Source: an uncultured delta proteobacterium
Lineage (GTDB): Bacteria; Myxococcota_A; Polyangia; Palsa-1104
DNA: 64,000 bases
Direction of reading: 5' to 3'
NCBI GenBank assembly: GCA_963785725.1
Contig: CAWAWS010000039.1
Location: 704,001-768,000 of the forward strand
Shown here: positions 326 to 7,261 of the stretch, in pieces
Layout of the letters: the number at the start of each line of letters is the position of its first letter
Numbering within the stretch: the first letter of the stretch is position 1
Notes under the pieces: model-generated
The model's input: the letters and a program-made list of their open reading frames with translations, nothing else
Database searches by the model: none
What the model was told of the DNA's origin: nothing
Program-made: the position numbers and the translations under genes

Positions 326-1237
326 ATGACTTCGACGACCACTCAACCGCTTTTCATTCTGGCGATGGATCACCGCGAATCGCTGGGCCGTGTCATTTAC
401 GGCGTCACCGGCGAGCCGAGCGCGGCCACGAAACAGCGCATTTCGGCCGGAAAGAAGCTCGTTTACGCCGGGCTGACGGCGGCGCTGGCGCGCGGCGGCG
501 ACAAAGCGACGACCGGCGTGCTCGTCGACGAGCGCTATGGCGCCGAGGTCGCGCGCGCCGCCAAGGCCGCCGGACTGACGCTGGCGATGCCCATCGAGCG
601 CTCGGGTCAGCACTGGTTCATGCTCGAATATGGCACGCTCAATGAATCGGCCTGGCTCGATCATATCGCCGAGTTCGATCCCCATTATTCCAAAGTATTG
701 GTCCGCGATAATCCTGAGTTCGATTCGCAGAAGCGGCGTCAGCAACAAGCCGACTTGGCCAAAGCGAGCGCGGCGCTGCGGGGCAATAAGCGGAAGCTGA
801 TCTTGGAGCTGCTGGTGCCGCCGTCGGACGCGCAGCATAAGGCGCTCGATAAGCGTTATGACCTCGAGCTGCGGCCGGAGCTGACCGAGCGCGTGATTCG
901 CGAGCTGCAAGCGGCCGGCGTCGAGCCCGATATTTGGAAGATCGAAGGGCTCGATCGCGCCGCGGACGCGGCGCGCATGGTGGCGGTCACGCAAGCGGGC
1001 GGGCGCAGCGACGTGCGCTGCATCGTGCTCGGCCGCGACGCGCCGGCGGCCGATCTCGATCGTTGGCTGCGCGTGGCCGCCGGCGTGCCCGGCTTTCGCG
1101 GCTTCGCGATCGGCCGCAGCATTTGGGAGCAGCCGCTGATGGATACGGTCGCCGGTAAGATCGACGACAAAGCCGCGATCGACATCATCGCCACTCGCTA
1201 CTTGCACTTCGTAAAGACGTATCGCGAGGCGATGTAA
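326..1237 (+). CDS. DUF2090 / 2-deoxy-5-keto-gluconate-6-phosphate aldolase-like (IolC C-terminal-like) class I aldolase
   Basis: LFILAMDHR, GVLVDERYG, EPDIWKIEG, CIVLGR and GFAIGRSIW motifs; ATG at 326 after GAGAGG. Confidence 0.85.
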   Translation: MTSTTTQPLFILAMDHRESLGRVIYGVTGEPSAATKQRISAGKKLVYAGLTAALARGGDKATTGVLVDERYGAEVARAAKAAGLTLAMPIERSGQHWFMLEYGTLNESAWLDHIAEFDPHYSKVLVRDNPEFDSQKRRQQQADLAKASAALRGNKRKLILELLVPPSDAQHKALDKRYDLELRPELTERVIRELQAAGVEPDIWKIEGLDRAADAARMVAVTQAGGRSDVRCIVLGRDAPAADLDRWLRVAAGVPGFRGFAIGRSIWEQPLMDTVAGKIDDKAAIDIIATRYLHFVKTYREAM

Positions 1238-1252
1238 GCGCGCCGAATATCT

Positions 1253-1474
1253 CTAACGCGGTTTTCGTTCACCCCAGCGACGCATCAGCTTCGACGTGAC
1301 CTCGATACAGCGCGGGTCGAAGGTCGCGACATAGTCGCGGAACGGCGTGGCGCGCGCGTCGTCGGCGAGCCGGCGCGCGATGTCGTCGGCGGTCAGCTCG
1401 GGCGCGAACATCACATTCAAGAGCGCCTCTTGATAGGTCGCCAGCGCCTCTTCGTCTTCGCGTTCGCGTGACAT
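1253..1474 (-). CDS. 73-aa hypothetical protein, probable MNIO partner
   Basis: MSREREDEEALATYQEALL...FDPRCIEVTSKLMRRWG; starts 16 nt after the DUF692 stop on the same strand. Confidence 0.65.
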   Translation of the reverse strand: MSREREDEEALATYQEALLNVMFAPELTADDIARRLADDARATPFRDYVATFDPRCIEVTSKLMRRWGERKPR

Positions 1475-1490
1475 GAGCGGCGCGGCGAGC

Positions 1491-2396
1491 TCAGGCTTCG
1501 TCATCGACGGACTCCACGATGTCGCGCAGGCGTTTGAAGTCGGCTTGATAGCGGGCGATCTCGTCATCGCTCTCGATATTGGCGCCGCGCTGCTCGAGGA
1601 ACACGACTTCGGCGTTCGGACAGCGACGTAAGACCGCCGGCAAGAGCGCGAAAGCCTCGTCGGGCACGGGACCATCGTGGCTATCGAGCCGTATCGGTCC
1701 TTTGTGCGCTTGCACGGTCGGTTGATACCAATCGCCACCGGAGATATGCAGCTCGCGGACGCGCTCGAGCGGATAACGCGGCAGCATGTCGTCGACCGAA
1801 AGCCCGAGGTTGCGACATTGTGTCCATAAGTTGTGAACGTCGAACAAGAGAAAGCCGTCGCTCGGCGCCAGCAGCCGGCTCAAGAACGCGCCCTGCGTCG
1901 TGGCGTCCTCGGCGCTGAGCGCGATGGCCGTATTCTCGAGCCCGACTGGAATGTCGGCGGCGAGCGCCAGGCGCTGCAGTCGGTCGTGTCCGATCCGCAG
2001 CGCCGCGTCGGTCATCGGCACGGGGAACATCGTGCCGCAGGTGAAATCGCCGGCAGTAAAGAAGCCGAAGTGCTCCGAGAAGTGGCGATAGCGACGCGCT
2101 CTGCATTCGTGCGCGAGCTGCTCGAGCCAACGCTCCTGGCGCGGCTCCAAGCGTGCCGATAAGAACGAGAACCAGACGCCGTGTCCATAAAGGGCGTCGT
2201 CTTCACTGTATACATCGAGCAGCTCGTCGACCCAACCTGGCAGCTCGCGATACTGCTCGGGTCCGCGACCCCAGCTATCGTCGACGTCCCACTCCAGAGC
2301 GTCGACGAGGCCAGCCTCGAAAAGCGGCCCGGCCGCTGCGCGATATCGTTCACTCGCGAACAGATTCAATCCGACGCGCAGCGGCCGAGCCCTCAT
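1491..2396 (-). CDS. DUF692 family multinuclear non-heme iron oxidative enzyme (MNIO), ChrH-like
   Basis: Metal-ligand motifs GHGV, SEHFG, GLEN, DVHNL, ELHISGG, DSHDG and FLEQR; N-terminal LEWxxD. Confidence 0.9.
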   Translation of the reverse strand: MRARPLRVGLNLFASERYRAAAGPLFEAGLVDALEWDVDDSWGRGPEQYRELPGWVDELLDVYSEDDALYGHGVWFSFLSARLEPRQERWLEQLAHECRARRYRHFSEHFGFFTAGDFTCGTMFPVPMTDAALRIGHDRLQRLALAADIPVGLENTAIALSAEDATTQGAFLSRLLAPSDGFLLFDVHNLWTQCRNLGLSVDDMLPRYPLERVRELHISGGDWYQPTVQAHKGPIRLDSHDGPVPDEAFALLPAVLRRCPNAEVVFLEQRGANIESDDEIARYQADFKRLRDIVESVDDEA

Positions 2397-2405
2397 GGTC
2401 GCGAC

Positions 2406-2564
2406 TTAGACCTTGTCGCCCGAGAGCGTGATGAGACGACCACAGGTCGGGCAGCCGCCGCCGGCCGCTTTCGCCAGATCTTTGCTGTCGATCGTGCGCA
2501 GGATCGAGGCAGCCTTCTGATTGCGCTCCGTCTTCTGCTTCACTTCGTTCTTCTTGTTGGTCAT
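2406..2564 (-). CDS. Putative RiPP precursor peptide (52 aa) with CPTCG motif
   Basis: MTNKKNEVKQKTERNQKAASILRTIDSKDLAKAAGGGCPTCGRLITLSGDKV*; AAAGGGG RBS; stop 9 nt before the MNIO start; absent from the ORF track. Confidence 0.85.
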   Translation of the reverse strand: MTNKKNEVKQKTERNQKAASILRTIDSKDLAKAAGGGCPTCGRLITLSGDKV

Positions 2565-2908
2565 GTGATTCCCCTTTGCGAGAGTTGAATTTCAAGTGCG
2601 CGCGCAAATCGACCATGCGCTCACGATTCCTTTCCAGCAGCGACGCGTCGCACATGTATGTCGTTTTTATTTGATAGTGAGTATGGCGGTCCTCACATTC
2701 TTAGCGCGCCATCAGCGGACGAGCGGAGATGGCGAGATTCCGTCGAGGATCATCGATCCGGTCGTTGTCGCCGGCGAGACAACAGCCGCGACAAAATGTC
2801 GCATGTCCATGCCGCTGAGCGCTCGGAGGTGTGCGCCGGGTAACGGCGCGGCCGAGCCAATTCTGCGTTAATGTCGCTCCAATGATTAGCGCTCGGACTC
2901 TCACGCGA

Positions 2909-3595
2909 ATGATTGGCGGCCCATTCATCCTTATCGTTGTCGCCGGTTTCGCGAACGGCGGCTCGCAGACGTCCTATGTGCAGGCCGCGCACGCCGAGAA
3001 AATCGCCGACGATCAGCAGCTGGCCGCGCAGAAGGCGCTGGGCGCGCTGCCCGGTCGTCACGAGCCGGAAGATCGCTGCGGCAGCGATGCGGACGAGGAG
3101 CGCTGCCGCGTGTGGCAGCTCGCCGTCGACCTCTTACCCGACGTGCCCGGCGTGGAGCAGGTGCGCGCGTCGATGAGCGAAGGGATCGCGCTCTTCGACG
3201 CCAGCCATCAGTTGATCGCGCGCAACGACGGCGACATCAGCCCCGGCTCGCTGTCGGCGTTCGGCGAGCTGTCGGCCGGGCAGCTCATCCCCGACGCCGA
3301 CCTCGAGCTCGTCTGGTTCCACGACGACGGCGGGCGCAACAGCGGGTCGAGCATGTTGACCGTGCTCAAACGGCGCGGCGCCGAGCTCGTCGAGGTGTTC
3401 GTCGGCGACACGCGCGAGTGGGACGATATGGTCACCACCAGCGGCGGCGAGCGCGACGGCCACGTCACGCTCGGCGGCAACGGCGTCATTCACTATCGCG
3501 CGCCGGGCAGCAAGCGCGTCACGACGTGGCGCTGGGACGCGGCCGCGTTCCGCTTCGTCAAAGAGGCGACGCCGGTCAAACATCGCTTCAACTGA
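2909..3595 (+). CDS. Hypothetical exported protein
   Basis: Hydrophobic N-terminus and GC-rich third codon positions; start uncertain. Confidence 0.6.
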   Translation: MIGGPFILIVVAGFANGGSQTSYVQAAHAEKIADDQQLAAQKALGALPGRHEPEDRCGSDADEERCRVWQLAVDLLPDVPGVEQVRASMSEGIALFDASHQLIARNDGDISPGSLSAFGELSAGQLIPDADLELVWFHDDGGRNSGSSMLTVLKRRGAELVEVFVGDTREWDDMVTTSGGERDGHVTLGGNGVIHYRAPGSKRVTTWRWDAAAFRFVKEATPVKHRFN

Positions 3596-5484
3596 GCCTG
3601 ACGCGCCGGGGCCACCTTATTCGTTCGCGTCGGCGAAGCGACCGCGGGCGCGGCCTGCGTCGTTCCTCGAAGGCGCGCTAAACCGGCTGGGCGGCCAAGA
3701 ATCTCGGCGAGCGGCAGGGCGAAGCCGTCGTCCCGGTCGATCGTGACCACCTCGGCGTAGGTCGTGCCGCCGCGCTGCCGCAGCCGCTCGATGCGCACGA
3801 CGTGCGCGAAATCGCGCGCCCGCAAGAGCAGCGGCTCGCCCGTCTCGACCGCGCGCTGCAACGTCGCCTCCAGCAGCGCCGCCGCCGACGGCGCGACCAC
3901 CGGCGCGTCGACGCGACCGGCGGCCGCCGGCGACGACAAGGGCGGCCGCTCGCCGCTGAGGCGCGCGCGCAGCCGCGCCTGCAGCGCGCCGGCCGCTTCG
4001 GGCGCACGATAGCGCTCGTCGCGATCGTGGACGAAGACGGTATAGGGCGACTGCTCCTGCCGACCGCCGTCACCGACGAGCGGATCGCGATCGAGCACGC
4101 GCACCGCCAGCTTGCGCAGCACCGCCTTGACGCGCGAACGCTCGAAGTCGTGCACCATCAAGACGCGCTCGCCGAGCTCGGTCACGGCGATGCGCTCGCG
4201 CCGTAGCGCCGTCAGCGCCAGCGCTTTTTGCTCGGTGTTGTCGAGCTGAATCGCCAGCCCTTCGCACAACAGCGCGCGCTGCGACGTGCGCGTCCAACTG
4301 CGAATCGTCACCGCGACATTTTGCGGCAGCGCGCGCTCGGCATGCGCCGTCAACAGCGTCACCAGCTCCTCGGTCGTCGCGCCTTCGTCGATGGCCGCCT
4401 GCACCGAGTCTTCGTCGACGCGAAAGGTGACGAAGCGATCGGCGTGCTGCAGCTTGGCGAAGCGGCCGAGCTGCGCGATGACGTCGGGCGGCGTATTCGG
4501 CGGCGCCAGCACCTCGAAGCTCGGCTGCACGACCAGCCGACCGACCTCGGGCGCGGGCAGGCGCGGCGCGCGAAAGTGGCGCACGCCGCCCGCGTCGCTC
4601 GTCTGCTCGAGCAGCAGCGTCGACGAGAAAGGCGTCAGATCGGGCTCGGCGCCGCGGTTTCCGCCATAGAAGTGCGTGCGCAAGCGGACGATGCGCTCCA
4701 GGCTCGGCGCCGGCAGCCAGCCGCCGTTGGCCGTCGCGCACAGCGTATAGGCGCGAAACATCTGCCACGACGACAGCTGCCGTGCGATGAGCTCGCCCCA
4801 CGAATCGCCGATCGGCCGCGCGAACAGGCGGGCCACGCCGTCGCCGTCGAGCTCGACGCGCTCGCTGAGCTTGAGCGTATGCGCGCTGATGAGGCCGTCC
4901 ACGAGCGCGTCGACACGACCGGCGAGCCGCGGCGTCGTCGCCAGCCGCTTGTCGAGCTTGCGTAGATCGCTCGCGTTGATGCAGCCGTCGCGATTGACGC
5001 GCGGTCGCGCGTTGGCGAGCAGCGCCAGGAGCACGGCGGCGTCGAAGCGCAGCGGCTCGGGCTCGGCTTGCAAGTCGTCGCGCAGCGGCTCCACCGACGG
5101 GACGAACCACGTCAGCGCCTCGGCCACCCATTCGAGCACGCCCAGGCGCTCGCCGTTGCCGCTGGCGGTCACCAGGCCCGTCGTTGCCAACGCCGTCAGC
5201 GCCGGCGCCGCGCGATCGCCGAGCGCGCGCGTCAGCTCGCCGAGGAGCAGCGCGCGCGGCACGAGCCCGCCGGCGTCGACGGCGACCGAGAGCGCGCACA
5301 CGACGTCGGGCGCCAGCGTCGCCAAGCCGGCCGCGACGGCGCTCGGGTCACGCAGCGCGCGCGCCACCTGAAGATGCGCCGGCTCGCGCGCGTGCGGCTT
5401 GACGACGAACAGCCGCAGCAGCGCCTCGACGAGCCCGGCATCGAGCCGCTGCAGCTGAATCATCAGTCGATCTAGCATGGGCAA
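3493..5484 (-). CDS. XPB-associated protein (Helicase_C_3 domain) with WYL-like C-terminus; true stop possibly at 3678
   Basis: LVVQPSFEVLAP...LGRFA...FRVDEDSV...L..HA...LPQNV..TIRSW; directly downstream of XPB. Confidence 0.8.
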   Translation of the reverse strand: MPMLDRLMIQLQRLDAGLVEALLRLFVVKPHAREPAHLQVARALRDPSAVAAGLATLAPDVVCALSVAVDAGGLVPRALLLGELTRALGDRAAPALTALATTGLVTASGNGERLGVLEWVAEALTWFVPSVEPLRDDLQAEPEPLRFDAAVLLALLANARPRVNRDGCINASDLRKLDKRLATTPRLAGRVDALVDGLISAHTLKLSERVELDGDGVARLFARPIGDSWGELIARQLSSWQMFRAYTLCATANGGWLPAPSLERIVRLRTHFYGGNRGAEPDLTPFSSTLLLEQTSDAGGVRHFRAPRLPAPEVGRLVVQPSFEVLAPPNTPPDVIAQLGRFAKLQHADRFVTFRVDEDSVQAAIDEGATTEELVTLLTAHAERALPQNVAVTIRSWTRTSQRALLCEGLAIQLDNTEQKALALTALRRERIAVTELGERVLMVHDFERSRVKAVLRKLAVRVLDRDPLVGDGGRQEQSPYTVFVHDRDERYRAPEAAGALQARLRARLSGERPPLSSPAAAGRVDAPVVAPSAAALLEATLQRAVETGEPLLLRARDFAHVVRIERLRQRGGTTYAEVVTIDRDDGFALPLAEILGRPAGLARLRGTTQAAPAVASPTRTNKVAPARQAQLKRCLTGVASLTKRNAAASQRHVVTRLLPGAR

Positions 5485-5509
5485 GACTGGACGCGCATGG
5501 ACGAGCCGC

Positions 5510-7261
5510 TCACTCGTTCTCCGTGCCGGTGGCGCGGCTCATCGGAAACGGCAAGATGGTGGCGCCCGCCGGATCGCGCTCGACGGCCGGCGCGGCGCCG
5601 ATCTCCTCGATGTAATAGCGATAGCCCTGCTCGGTGAGGAACAGCTGGCGGTTCATGGCGAAGCGCTGGTCGGAGGTGTCGCGCGTGACGATCGAGTAGA
5701 ACAGCGCCGGCCGCCCGTCGCTCTTGGGCCGCAAGATGCGCCCGAGCCGCTGCGCCTCCTCTTGCCGCGAGCCGAACGTGCCCGAGATCTGAATGCACAC
5801 GCTGGCGTCGGGCAAATCGATGCTGAAGTTGCCGACGCGCGACAAGATGAGGACGGGAATCGCGCCCGCGCGGAAGCCGTCGAGCAGTCGCTCGCGCTCG
5901 CGCTGCGGCGTCTCGCCGGTGATGAGCGGCGCGCCGAGGCGCTTGGCCGCCGCCGCCAGCTGCTCGAGATAGGCGCCGATGACGAGGATGCTGGCGCCGG
6001 CGTGATCGGCGCACAGCCGCGCCGCCTGCTCGAGCTTCGCCGGATTCGCGGCCGCGATCTGATGCTGCGCCTGCGCTTCGGCGGCGTCGTACAGTGTACG
6101 ACGATCGGCCGGCAGCGCCACGCGCAGCTCGTAGCAGGTGGCTTCGGCGATGAAGCCCTGCGCCTCGATCTCTTTCCACGGCACGTCGAAGCGCTTCGGT
6201 CCGATGAGGCTGAACACTTCGCCTTCCAGGCCGTCCTCGCGAATCAGCGTCGCCGTCAGGCCGAGGCGCCGCTTGGCCTGAATCTCGGCGGTCAGGCGAA
6301 ACACCGGCGCCGGCAGCAGATGAACCTCGTCGTAGACGATGAGCCCGAACTCGTGCCCACCCAACTTCTCGAAGTGCGGAAACGCGCCTTTGATCTTCTT
6401 GGTCAGGATCTGATAGGTCGCGACGGTGACGGGCCGAATGTCTTTGCGGTCGCCCGAATATTCGCCGACCTGATCGGCCGTCAGCGTCGTCTTGTCGAGC
6501 AGCTCGGCGATCCATTGCCGCGCCGCCGTCACGTTCGTCACCAGCACCAGCGTCTCGGTCTGCAGCTCGGCCATCGCCGCCATCGCCACCAGCGTCTTGC
6601 CGGCGCCGCACGGCAGCACGACGACGCCGTGCCCGCCCGCGTGATCGCCGGCCGCGCCGGTGGCGAACGCGCGCACGGCGTCGCGCTGATAGGGCCGCAG
6701 CGCGAACGGCGCGCCCGCCGCTGACGTCGCGCGCAGCGCCACTTGCAGCGGCCGACCCGGCGTGAACCCGGCGCGATCGTCGACGGGATGGCCGAGCTTC
6801 AGCAGCACCTGCTTGACCGTGCCGCGCCAGGCCGGCGGCACGACGAACGCCAGCGGATCCGACAGCGGCTCGAGCAGCTGGCTCAGCGTTTGGTGATTGC
6901 GCGCCATCGCCGCCAACGAAACATTGGCGAACCCGAGGCGCAGCCGGCCTTCGGGACCGGCCGTGAGCACGATCTTGCCCCAGCGCGCGGTCAGGTCGAC
7001 GATCTCGGCGAGCACGTTCTGCGGCAGCGGATAGCGCGAATATTCGCGCAAAATGCCGGTGATTTCGTCGGCCGTCATGCCGCTGGCGGCGGCGTTCCAC
7101 AGCGCCAGCGGCGACAGCCGATAGGTGTGCATGTGCTCGGGCGACTTCTCGAGCTCGGCAAAACGGGCCAATCCGGCGCGCGCGGCCTCGTAACGCGGCG
7201 AGTGCAGGTCGACCAAGAGCGAGCGGTCGGCCTGCACGATCAATGGGTCATCGGCGCGCAT
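5510..7261 (-). CDS. xpb: XPB/Ssl2-family DNA repair helicase
   Basis: PLIVQADRSLL, ELEKSPEHMHTY, LPCGAGKT, DEVH, GLTATLIRED and QRLGRILR. Confidence 0.93.
   Translation of the reverse strand: MRADDPLIVQADRSLLVDLHSPRYEAARAGLARFAELEKSPEHMHTYRLSPLALWNAAASGMTADEITGILREYSRYPLPQNVLAEIVDLTARWGKIVLTAGPEGRLRLGFANVSLAAMARNHQTLSQLLEPLSDPLAFVVPPAWRGTVKQVLLKLGHPVDDRAGFTPGRPLQVALRATSAAGAPFALRPYQRDAVRAFATGAAGDHAGGHGVVVLPCGAGKTLVAMAAMAELQTETLVLVTNVTAARQWIAELLDKTTLTADQVGEYSGDRKDIRPVTVATYQILTKKIKGAFPHFEKLGGHEFGLIVYDEVHLLPAPVFRLTAEIQAKRRLGLTATLIREDGLEGEVFSLIGPKRFDVPWKEIEAQGFIAEATCYELRVALPADRRTLYDAAEAQAQHQIAAANPAKLEQAARLCADHAGASILVIGAYLEQLAAAAKRLGAPLITGETPQRERERLLDGFRAGAIPVLILSRVGNFSIDLPDASVCIQISGTFGSRQEEAQRLGRILRPKSDGRPALFYSIVTRDTSDQRFAMNRQLFLTEQGYRYYIEEIGAAPAVERDPAGATILPFPMSRATGTENE

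Follow-up and report, generated by a model that had tools for sequence, protein, structure and literature searches.

What does a 52-residue cysteine-containing peptide do directly upstream of a DUF692 (MNIO) enzyme and a tiny third protein, how might the enzyme find its substrate, and how might the product leave a cell whose operon holds no exporter? These questions are raised by a locus in a window of 64,000 nucleotides (the whole stretch of DNA analysed) from an uncultured delta proteobacterium of the Palsa-1104 lineage (Polyangia). An earlier note, made from the sequence alone, had read the three ORFs as the operon of a chryseobasin-related but distinct ribosomal peptide. The relationship was borne out, the enzyme belonging to the ChrH subfamily, whereas a distinct chemistry was not, given the precedent of ArlH in the main text of PMC13056109; it is in substrate recognition, and probably also in release, that the window system would differ from known ones.

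The operon and its split enzyme

The minus-strand peptide ORF with a strong ribosome binding site was found as described (Table 1), AAGGGG standing 6 nt before its ATG, and its stop codon does lie 9 nt before the start of the DUF692 gene, which passes PF05114 with 113.4 bits against a cut-off of 25 (Pfam). The third ORF is also present, but its earlier length of 73 aa, corresponding to a start at the second ATG, is probably too short: because the ATG at 1504 lies in a 14-nt overlap with the MNIO stop and is preceded at 7 nt by GGAG, and the second ATG has no Shine-Dalgarno sequence, a start at 1504 (83 aa) is preferred. The flanking genes are ordinary ones, namely a DUF2090 aldolase-like gene that converges on the operon (326-1237, plus strand) and an XPB helicase gene with a helicase-associated neighbour (3493-7261, minus strand). 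A promoter and terminator scan gave 0 promoter-like sites and 2 terminator-like sites (1.4 expected).

Table 1. Features of the operon, numbered from the first nucleotide of the window.
Feature	Position	Strand	Description or basis
Precursor gene, 52 aa, without signal peptide	2406..2564	(-)	Residues 1-36 basic leader, 37-52 predicted core
SD-like ribosome binding site AAGGGG of the precursor gene	2571..2576	(-)	Sequence; 6 nt before ATG
Conserved leader helix KAASIL, residues 17-22	2499..2516	(-)	Predicted enzyme-docking motif; conservation and model contacts
Double-Gly G35-G36, predicted C39 cleavage site	2457..2462	(-)	Ala(-4), Leu(-7), Ile(-12), Leu(-15); sequence and the rule in the main text of PMC10885120
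CPTCG motif, Cys38 and Cys41, then a 10-residue tail	2439..2453	(-)	Predicted macrocycle/hydantoin site; analogy to ArlA/DybA
ChrH/DybH-subfamily MNIO (DUF692) TIM-barrel domain, 301 aa	1491..2396	(-)	Pfam, NCBIfam, alignment, model
Leu237, replacing an Arg invariant in enzymes with CxxCGxG-ending substrates	1686..1688	(-)	Alignment
Separately encoded C-terminal helical bundle, MelHc type, 83 aa	1253..1504	(-)	Profile matches; main text of PMC13056109

Comparison with related loci confirmed, at the level of sequence, that the three genes form a genuine operon rather than chance ORFs. The earlier suggestion to look for short CxxCG ORFs at homologous loci proved fruitful: such an ORF, with an internal CxxCG, lies directly upstream in 17 of the 20 other MNIOs with at least 50% identity and a called precursor (4 further MNIOs at this identity, with no precursor called, are outside the 20). 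This recurrence speaks against a chance ORF; a zinc-finger ORF was rejected as well, and the precursor protein is also present in a public protein collection (P0163). A precursor profile matched 5 of 401 genomes of the class, each time directly upstream of such an MNIO, and 2 of the 5 matches were outside its training set. Kofleriaceae loci, from the same class as the host, carry the same operon, which places the host among the myxobacteria; it was not found in any of 14 genomes of the host's family, 4 of them from the same genus (completeness 51-100%), and its distribution is therefore sporadic. A single-protein search of genome contigs gave no matches; an alignment-based search gave some. 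Contigs of close relatives in two soil RNA-library assemblies span the precursor gene and parts of the MNIO gene, with none over the small gene or the flanks, and at a depth of about 2 they indicate neither transcription nor its absence. The listed differences of these relatives are synonymous in 3 of 3 cases in the precursor, all at third codon positions, and at 13 of 19 in the MNIO, which supports a coding gene, not its transcription.

The assignment of the enzyme to the ChrH relatives, as had been proposed, follows from several comparisons. Its model (pLDDT 91) has TglH and MbnB as top fold matches, and its best NCBIfam match is the ChrH model NF050165 (269 bits, model positions 4-287 of 363), against 93 bits for the BufB model. 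The NF050165 equivalog cut-off of 600 is missed, as is the ChrA equivalog cut-off NF050124 by the precursor (15.8 against 50). We read the enzyme from these matches as a ChrH/DybH-subfamily MNIO and the system as not chryseobasin in the strict sense. The enzyme is 52% identical to P0061, which is encoded in genome G828 behind a 52-aa peptide carrying CPACGMMM; because this peptide with a short His tag has a mass of 6453.07 Da (1 of 20 tag variants matched), the value given for ArlA in the main text of PMC13056109, P0061 and its peptide were taken as Archangium ArlH and ArlA. In a quick IQ-TREE analysis of 95 of 185 domains (all those with at least 45.5% identity or an internal motif, plus every fourth of the others), the window enzyme and ArlH share one clade of 23 rows (SH-aLRT 99), and a 37-row tree agrees. 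Within this clade 17 rows have internal-CxxCG precursors, 3 are cut by contig ends and 3 show other Cys patterns, with no terminal CxxCGxG precursor among the 23.

The metal-site residues H72, H109, E154, D186, H188, H217, D238, H240 and E268 are intact. The iron ligands of DybH (H65, H102, D179, H210, D228 and H230; bioRxiv 10.64898/2026.10.27.762324) map at +7/+10 to H72, H109, D186, H217, D238 and H240 of the window enzyme, and none of these six varies among the 23-24 clade rows or the 138 terminal-type rows compared; the mapping was made by spacing, without a DybH sequence, because no Bacteroidota homologue with the exact DybH numbering was found. Structure searches turned up no solved ChrH-type enzyme.

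Several other MNIOs came to light. Two fused clade enzymes (L103 and L110) read DGH for DSH and follow, together with a ferredoxin gene, peptides whose pattern has three or four Cys, and a third clade enzyme (L033) stands behind a peptide with CPACSQ; all three are candidates for an altered chemistry. The host itself has a second, divergent MNIO (L208:6189-7798, G000:C36), which adjoins fdhD, is followed by a 253-aa unannotated protein and yielded no precursor, and a bufferin-type MNIO over the BufB cut-off (L209:5345-7088, G000:C14) with a DUF2063 partner and an upstream Cys-rich protein of 386 aa.

The tiny partner had been taken as a mark of distinctness, which did not hold: its matches identify it as the C-terminal helical bundle of the ChrH subfamily, split off and of MelHc type. 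It matches the fused tails of longer homologues with a phmmer E of 1e-13 and a profile of 95 fused tails with an E of 5e-15, and in profile-profile comparison a profile of 12 clade partners reached 99.3% with separate cyanobacterial/Melainabacteria proteins and 88.9% with Bacteroidota fused tails. It has no Pfam match at E up to 1 and no usable match in the ESM Atlas. An RRE-/DUF2063-type partner (BufC, TglI, MbnC) or a ChrI-type one was rejected, as the protein matches the C-terminal bundle instead. Both this bundle and its separate encoding are already described in the main text of PMC13056109, in which MelH is inactive without MelHc, and by this analogy barrel and bundle very probably form an active heterodimer.

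Compared with known systems, the window operon is, as judged from its genes, a combination of an ArlA-type internal motif with a MelH/MelHc-type split enzyme. It shares with ArlA/ArlH the clade, a signal-less precursor of about 50 aa with an internal CPxCG and a tail, a KA(A/T)x(I/L)L leader motif and the absence of Arg237, but ArlH is fused (381 aa), and ArlA carries CPACGMMM without a double-Gly site whereas the window precursor has such a site and CPTCGRL. The internal motif with its tail, also named earlier as distinguishing, is consequently no novelty, as ArlA already has one, which ArlH modifies to a -4 Da product and its methylated form (PMC13056109, main text). According to the same text, barrel and bundle are likewise two proteins in MelH/MelHc of Melainabacteria, but the substrate MelA1 is, unlike the window precursor, a 34-kDa secreted TPR protein with a Sec signal and a CPACGMG end; enzymes of terminal-motif loci moreover keep the Arg that the window enzyme lacks. 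ChrA/ChrH and DybA/DybH share the subfamily, iron ligands, C-terminal bundle and CPxCG, but differ by a terminal CPACGMG, SPI or SPII signal peptides and a fused enzyme, as far as described in PMC10214503, PMC13056109 and bioRxiv 10.64898/2026.10.27.762324, and by the ChrI, ChrE and ChrP of chr clusters. Neighbouring genes and Pfam/NCBIfam checks gave no adjoining protease or exporter; the absence reported earlier is thus real, but as a distinguishing mark it fails, since ChrH-subfamily clusters of precursor and enzyme only are common according to the main text of PMC13056109.

A precursor family and its predicted recognition

The earlier reading that the leader ends in a double-Gly-type site agrees with the rule given in the main text of PMC10885120, G(G/A) (also GS) with hydrophobic residues at -4, -7 and -12: the window precursor has Ala33, Leu30 and Ile25 before G35-G36. 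Its N-terminus, as read from the sequence, is charged and without a hydrophobic stretch, and its internal CPTCG lacks the second Gly of CPxCGxG. A family profile built from 11 locus precursors, partly with double-Gly leaders, gave 42 representatives at 50% identity, of which 4 long repeat proteins were dropped to leave 38 clusters, mostly known from the protein alone. The double-Gly rule holds for 28 of these 38 clusters, a count on which the double-Gly leaders in the seed bear, against 1 of 138 terminal-motif precursors, the single one being an NHLP leader, and none of the 38 ends in CxxCGxG. Among locus-verified clade precursors the rule holds for 8 of 18; ArlA and the Polyangium precursors fail it.

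An alignment of 34 precursors with about 30-70% identity (32 of the 38 clusters, the window peptide and P0164; of the 6 clusters left out, 5 fail the double-Gly rule and 1 has a long N-terminus) shows G35, C38, C41 and G42 to be invariant and the Leu at -7 to be at least 90% conserved, in keeping with the earlier view of CPTCG as the likely modified site. The distance from the KAAxIL helix to the double glycine is fixed, and the spacer between it and CxxC ranges from 1 residue to about 16; most members read CxTCG, not CPACG. Family members weakly match several families, mostly double-Gly ones (best E 0.002), and no family model covers the precursor family or reaches significance for the window peptide.

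Two other kinds of precursor were noted on the way. Those of L101:2826-2969, L107:2823-2978 and P0146 have internal or extended motifs and a different leader ending in V(K/R)AG. In a Polyangiaceae locus (L071:2736-5120), the precursor has an NHLP leader and the C-terminal end CPLCGAG, with a split ChrH-type enzyme behind it and an HlyD gene alongside, and this arrangement is a second, independent tie of the ChrH subfamily to double-Gly export.

All 138 terminal-motif enzymes have an Arg immediately before the Asp of the third iron site, and none of the 23 clade enzymes does. After 2 loci had been relabelled and 25 rows dropped (no usable precursor, or a gap), the split was 140 terminal with Arg and 20 internal without: of three apparent internal-motif loci with the Arg kept, L081 and L141 became terminal, a true terminal-motif TPR precursor lying further upstream, and L191 was dropped as ambiguous. 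The enzymes of L101 and L107/L109 also lack the Arg. On the tree the association between Arg and motif amounts to 2 independent changes (sign test p 0.5); L156 is probably a separate origin (AU test p 0.04), and L101/L109 were not counted as one because joining them to the clade was not rejected (AU test p 0.69). One terminal-motif row (L200, G662) comes from a genome flagged as unpublished, and no claim hangs on it alone. Two ChrH-type enzymes with the Arg kept (L178 and L179) have no plausible Cys-motif precursor within about 700 nt upstream. We hypothesise that the loss of this Arg might represent the loss of a clamp on the C-terminal carboxylate of the substrate.

What could have replaced such a clamp is suggested by the leader. 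A KAAxIL-type helix motif occurs in 18 of 18 clade precursors, a count that is circular as the pattern was written from the clade itself (which L119 joined by likeness, not by tree), and in 0 of 138 terminal-type precursors. In a complex model of barrel, bundle, peptide and iron, the peptide score was 0.70, with 0.01 for the best of 3 controls; 116 of 157 solved complexes and 2 of 215 mismatched pairs score as high as 0.70, a calibration that applies here only roughly. At least 45% of the contacts recur between runs, with a partner pLDDT of 54 or more, and the confident contacts place peptide residues 10-23 on enzyme residues 19-32 and 55-68; the core in the active site is not among them. Much of the surface on which it docks is shared with terminal-type enzymes (F26, V31, W55, L59, Y63), clade-specific changes being confined to positions 30, 62 and 68. 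In the solved MNIO-peptide complexes, as far as they are described, the leader binds a partner protein, and DybH accepts a short leaderless DybA variant (bioRxiv 10.64898/2026.10.27.762324). The KAASIL helix is likely to dock the 52-residue precursor on the split enzyme, and it is reasonably probable that recognition has shifted from the C-terminal carboxylate, read by the now-lost Arg, to the leader helix.

The precursor family with its KAAxIL helix and double-Gly site, the predicted leader docking and the loss of the Arg were not found in the main texts of the papers on these systems and are new relative to them. Literature searches yielded no paper that connects ChrH-type enzymes to double-Gly leaders or to PCATs, although the supplement or Fig. 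3A of PMC13056109 may list such loci; the term 'double-glycine' is absent from the main text of that paper, and the main text of the survey PMC12452194 makes no mention of such a precursor family.

Possible export and the unlinked C39 transporter

The only C39-ABC transporter of the host (742 aa) lies on another contig (G000:C26, cassette L206:11378-16679), keeps the Cys of its QxxxxECG motif and has as neighbours two HlyD genes and one outer-membrane efflux (TolC-type) gene; no precursor or modifying enzyme was called beside this cassette. As in double-glycine PCAT (C39) systems (PMC10885120, main text), G(G/A) in the window precursor follows hydrophobic -4, -7 and -12, but unlike them the cluster has no PCAT, and its leader has one more helix further upstream. 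No PCAT was seen adjoining the clade loci examined. All genomes with such a precursor that were checked encode a C39 transporter; PCATs occur in 29 of 151 class genomes but in 13 of 16 genomes of the family to which most of these loci belong, and they are also found in Archangium-type genomes whose precursors lack the double-Gly site. Co-occurrence with PCATs was rejected as evidence, since large genomes such as these often carry them. A profile built from five double-Gly leaders of the host ranked the precursor 7th of 42,626 short ORFs, though at an E of only 0.87, and an exporter shared among the double-Gly peptides of the host is plausible. Judged from the leader and the host's gene content, cleavage and export through an unlinked PCAT/type I system are slightly favoured.

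Double-Gly peptides are scattered over the host genome (L219:6889-7077, L221:8892-9059, L222:9757-9921, a pair at L223:8778-9270, L224:7132-7263 and L225:6943-7101). Four are over the cut-off of the NF038153 class I lanthipeptide leader, and several have no recognisable modifying enzyme adjoining; the L223 pair lies beside a 452-aa protein that matches only the cyclase end of lanthionine synthetases. A further locus (L220:6310-9143, G000:C33) has an S41 protease, a 69-aa double-Gly precursor and a radical SAM/SPASM maturase in a row, with no family over its cut-off.

Proposed product and its alternatives

Taken together, these observations would fit a pathway in which the leader-docked precursor is modified by the split ChrH-type enzyme, its CPTCG-R converted to the known macrocycle and hydantoin (-4 Da). 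Release would then fall to a C39 peptidase-exporter whose gene lies elsewhere in the genome, which would cleave behind the double glycine and export the last 16 residues as a free peptide; the balance tips a little towards this scheme as a whole. In the analogous ChrA structure (PMC10214503, main text), the sulfur corresponding to Cys38 is bonded to what was the beta-carbon of Cys41, whose carbonyl lies between the Gly42 and Arg43 nitrogens. It is likely, following that precedent, that Cys41 would become a thioaldehyde, its carbonyl moving between these nitrogens, and that Cys38 would close the ring, leaving a free thiol. The tested substrates of the subfamily are CPACGMG, CPGCGLG and CPACGMMM, from which the window motif differs by its Thr in third place and its Arg after the Gly.

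Several residues near the active site are changed in the clade (192 C to T, 237 R lost, 239 T to S, 270 L to R, 123 P lost), and most precursors read CxTCG instead of CPACG, so a chemically different Cys modification might be considered. ArlH, however, has the same changes, and yet the -4 Da product that it gives, with the methylated form of this product, was ascribed by the authors to the same route (PMC13056109; in its main text the assignment is by MALDI mass, not NMR), and this alternative appears improbable; a departure from the known chryseobasin route is, by the same analogy, unlikely. Chemistry and export could also be as proposed with an enzyme that ignores the leader, the KAAxIL helix being conserved for the exporter only: PMC13056109 argues in its main text for minimal C-terminal motif recognition, hydrophobic -12 and -15 belong to PCAT recognition according to the main text of PMC10885120, and the docking surface is found outside the clade as well. 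Nevertheless, the helix is kept in ArlA-type and Polyangium precursors without a double-Gly site and the complex model places it on the enzyme, which makes a leader-blind enzyme highly improbable.

The fate of the peptide after modification is the other point of choice. The double glycine might be a relic of a recruited leader, the same product staying whole in the cytoplasm or being trimmed by housekeeping proteases, as might be expected from the lack of a linked PCAT at the clade loci examined, from the failure of the double-Gly rule in 10 of 18 locus-verified clade precursors (ArlA among them), and from the little information carried by PCAT co-occurrence. Against this, a relic would be expected to lose the G35 that is invariant and the -7 Leu kept in at least 90% of 34 divergent precursors, and a C39 transporter is present in every checked genome with such a precursor; we regard a relic as rather unlikely. 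Returning to the scheme of modification followed by C39 release, it is possible, and we propose this only tentatively, that a myxobacterial branch swapped reading of the C-terminus (Arg clamp lost) for a leader helix bound by the TIM barrel itself, without RRE or partner, closing its ring at an internal CxxCG and passing the product through its double glycine to a shared, unlinked PCAT.

If true, this would give the ChrH subfamily a third export route besides SPI secretion and SPII lipidation, and its 38 or more precursor clusters would yield chryseobasin-type peptides that are small and free. The discussion of PMC13056109 assigns no function to the chryseobasin macrocycle, and a role of the window peptide as a secreted signal or antagonist is a guess from its export route alone. 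The chryseobasin products known so far are either lipopeptides anchored in the membrane or long chains that are secreted; a version that is short, soluble and freed from its leader would be the easiest to make and to test for metal binding, signalling and antibacterial activity. The Arg and the leader helix offer two single-site handles on substrate recognition in the subfamily, and leader-guided installation of an internal ring, in precursors whose natural spacers run from 1 residue to about 16 and whose tails differ, would, if true, be a practical tool for macrocyclisation.
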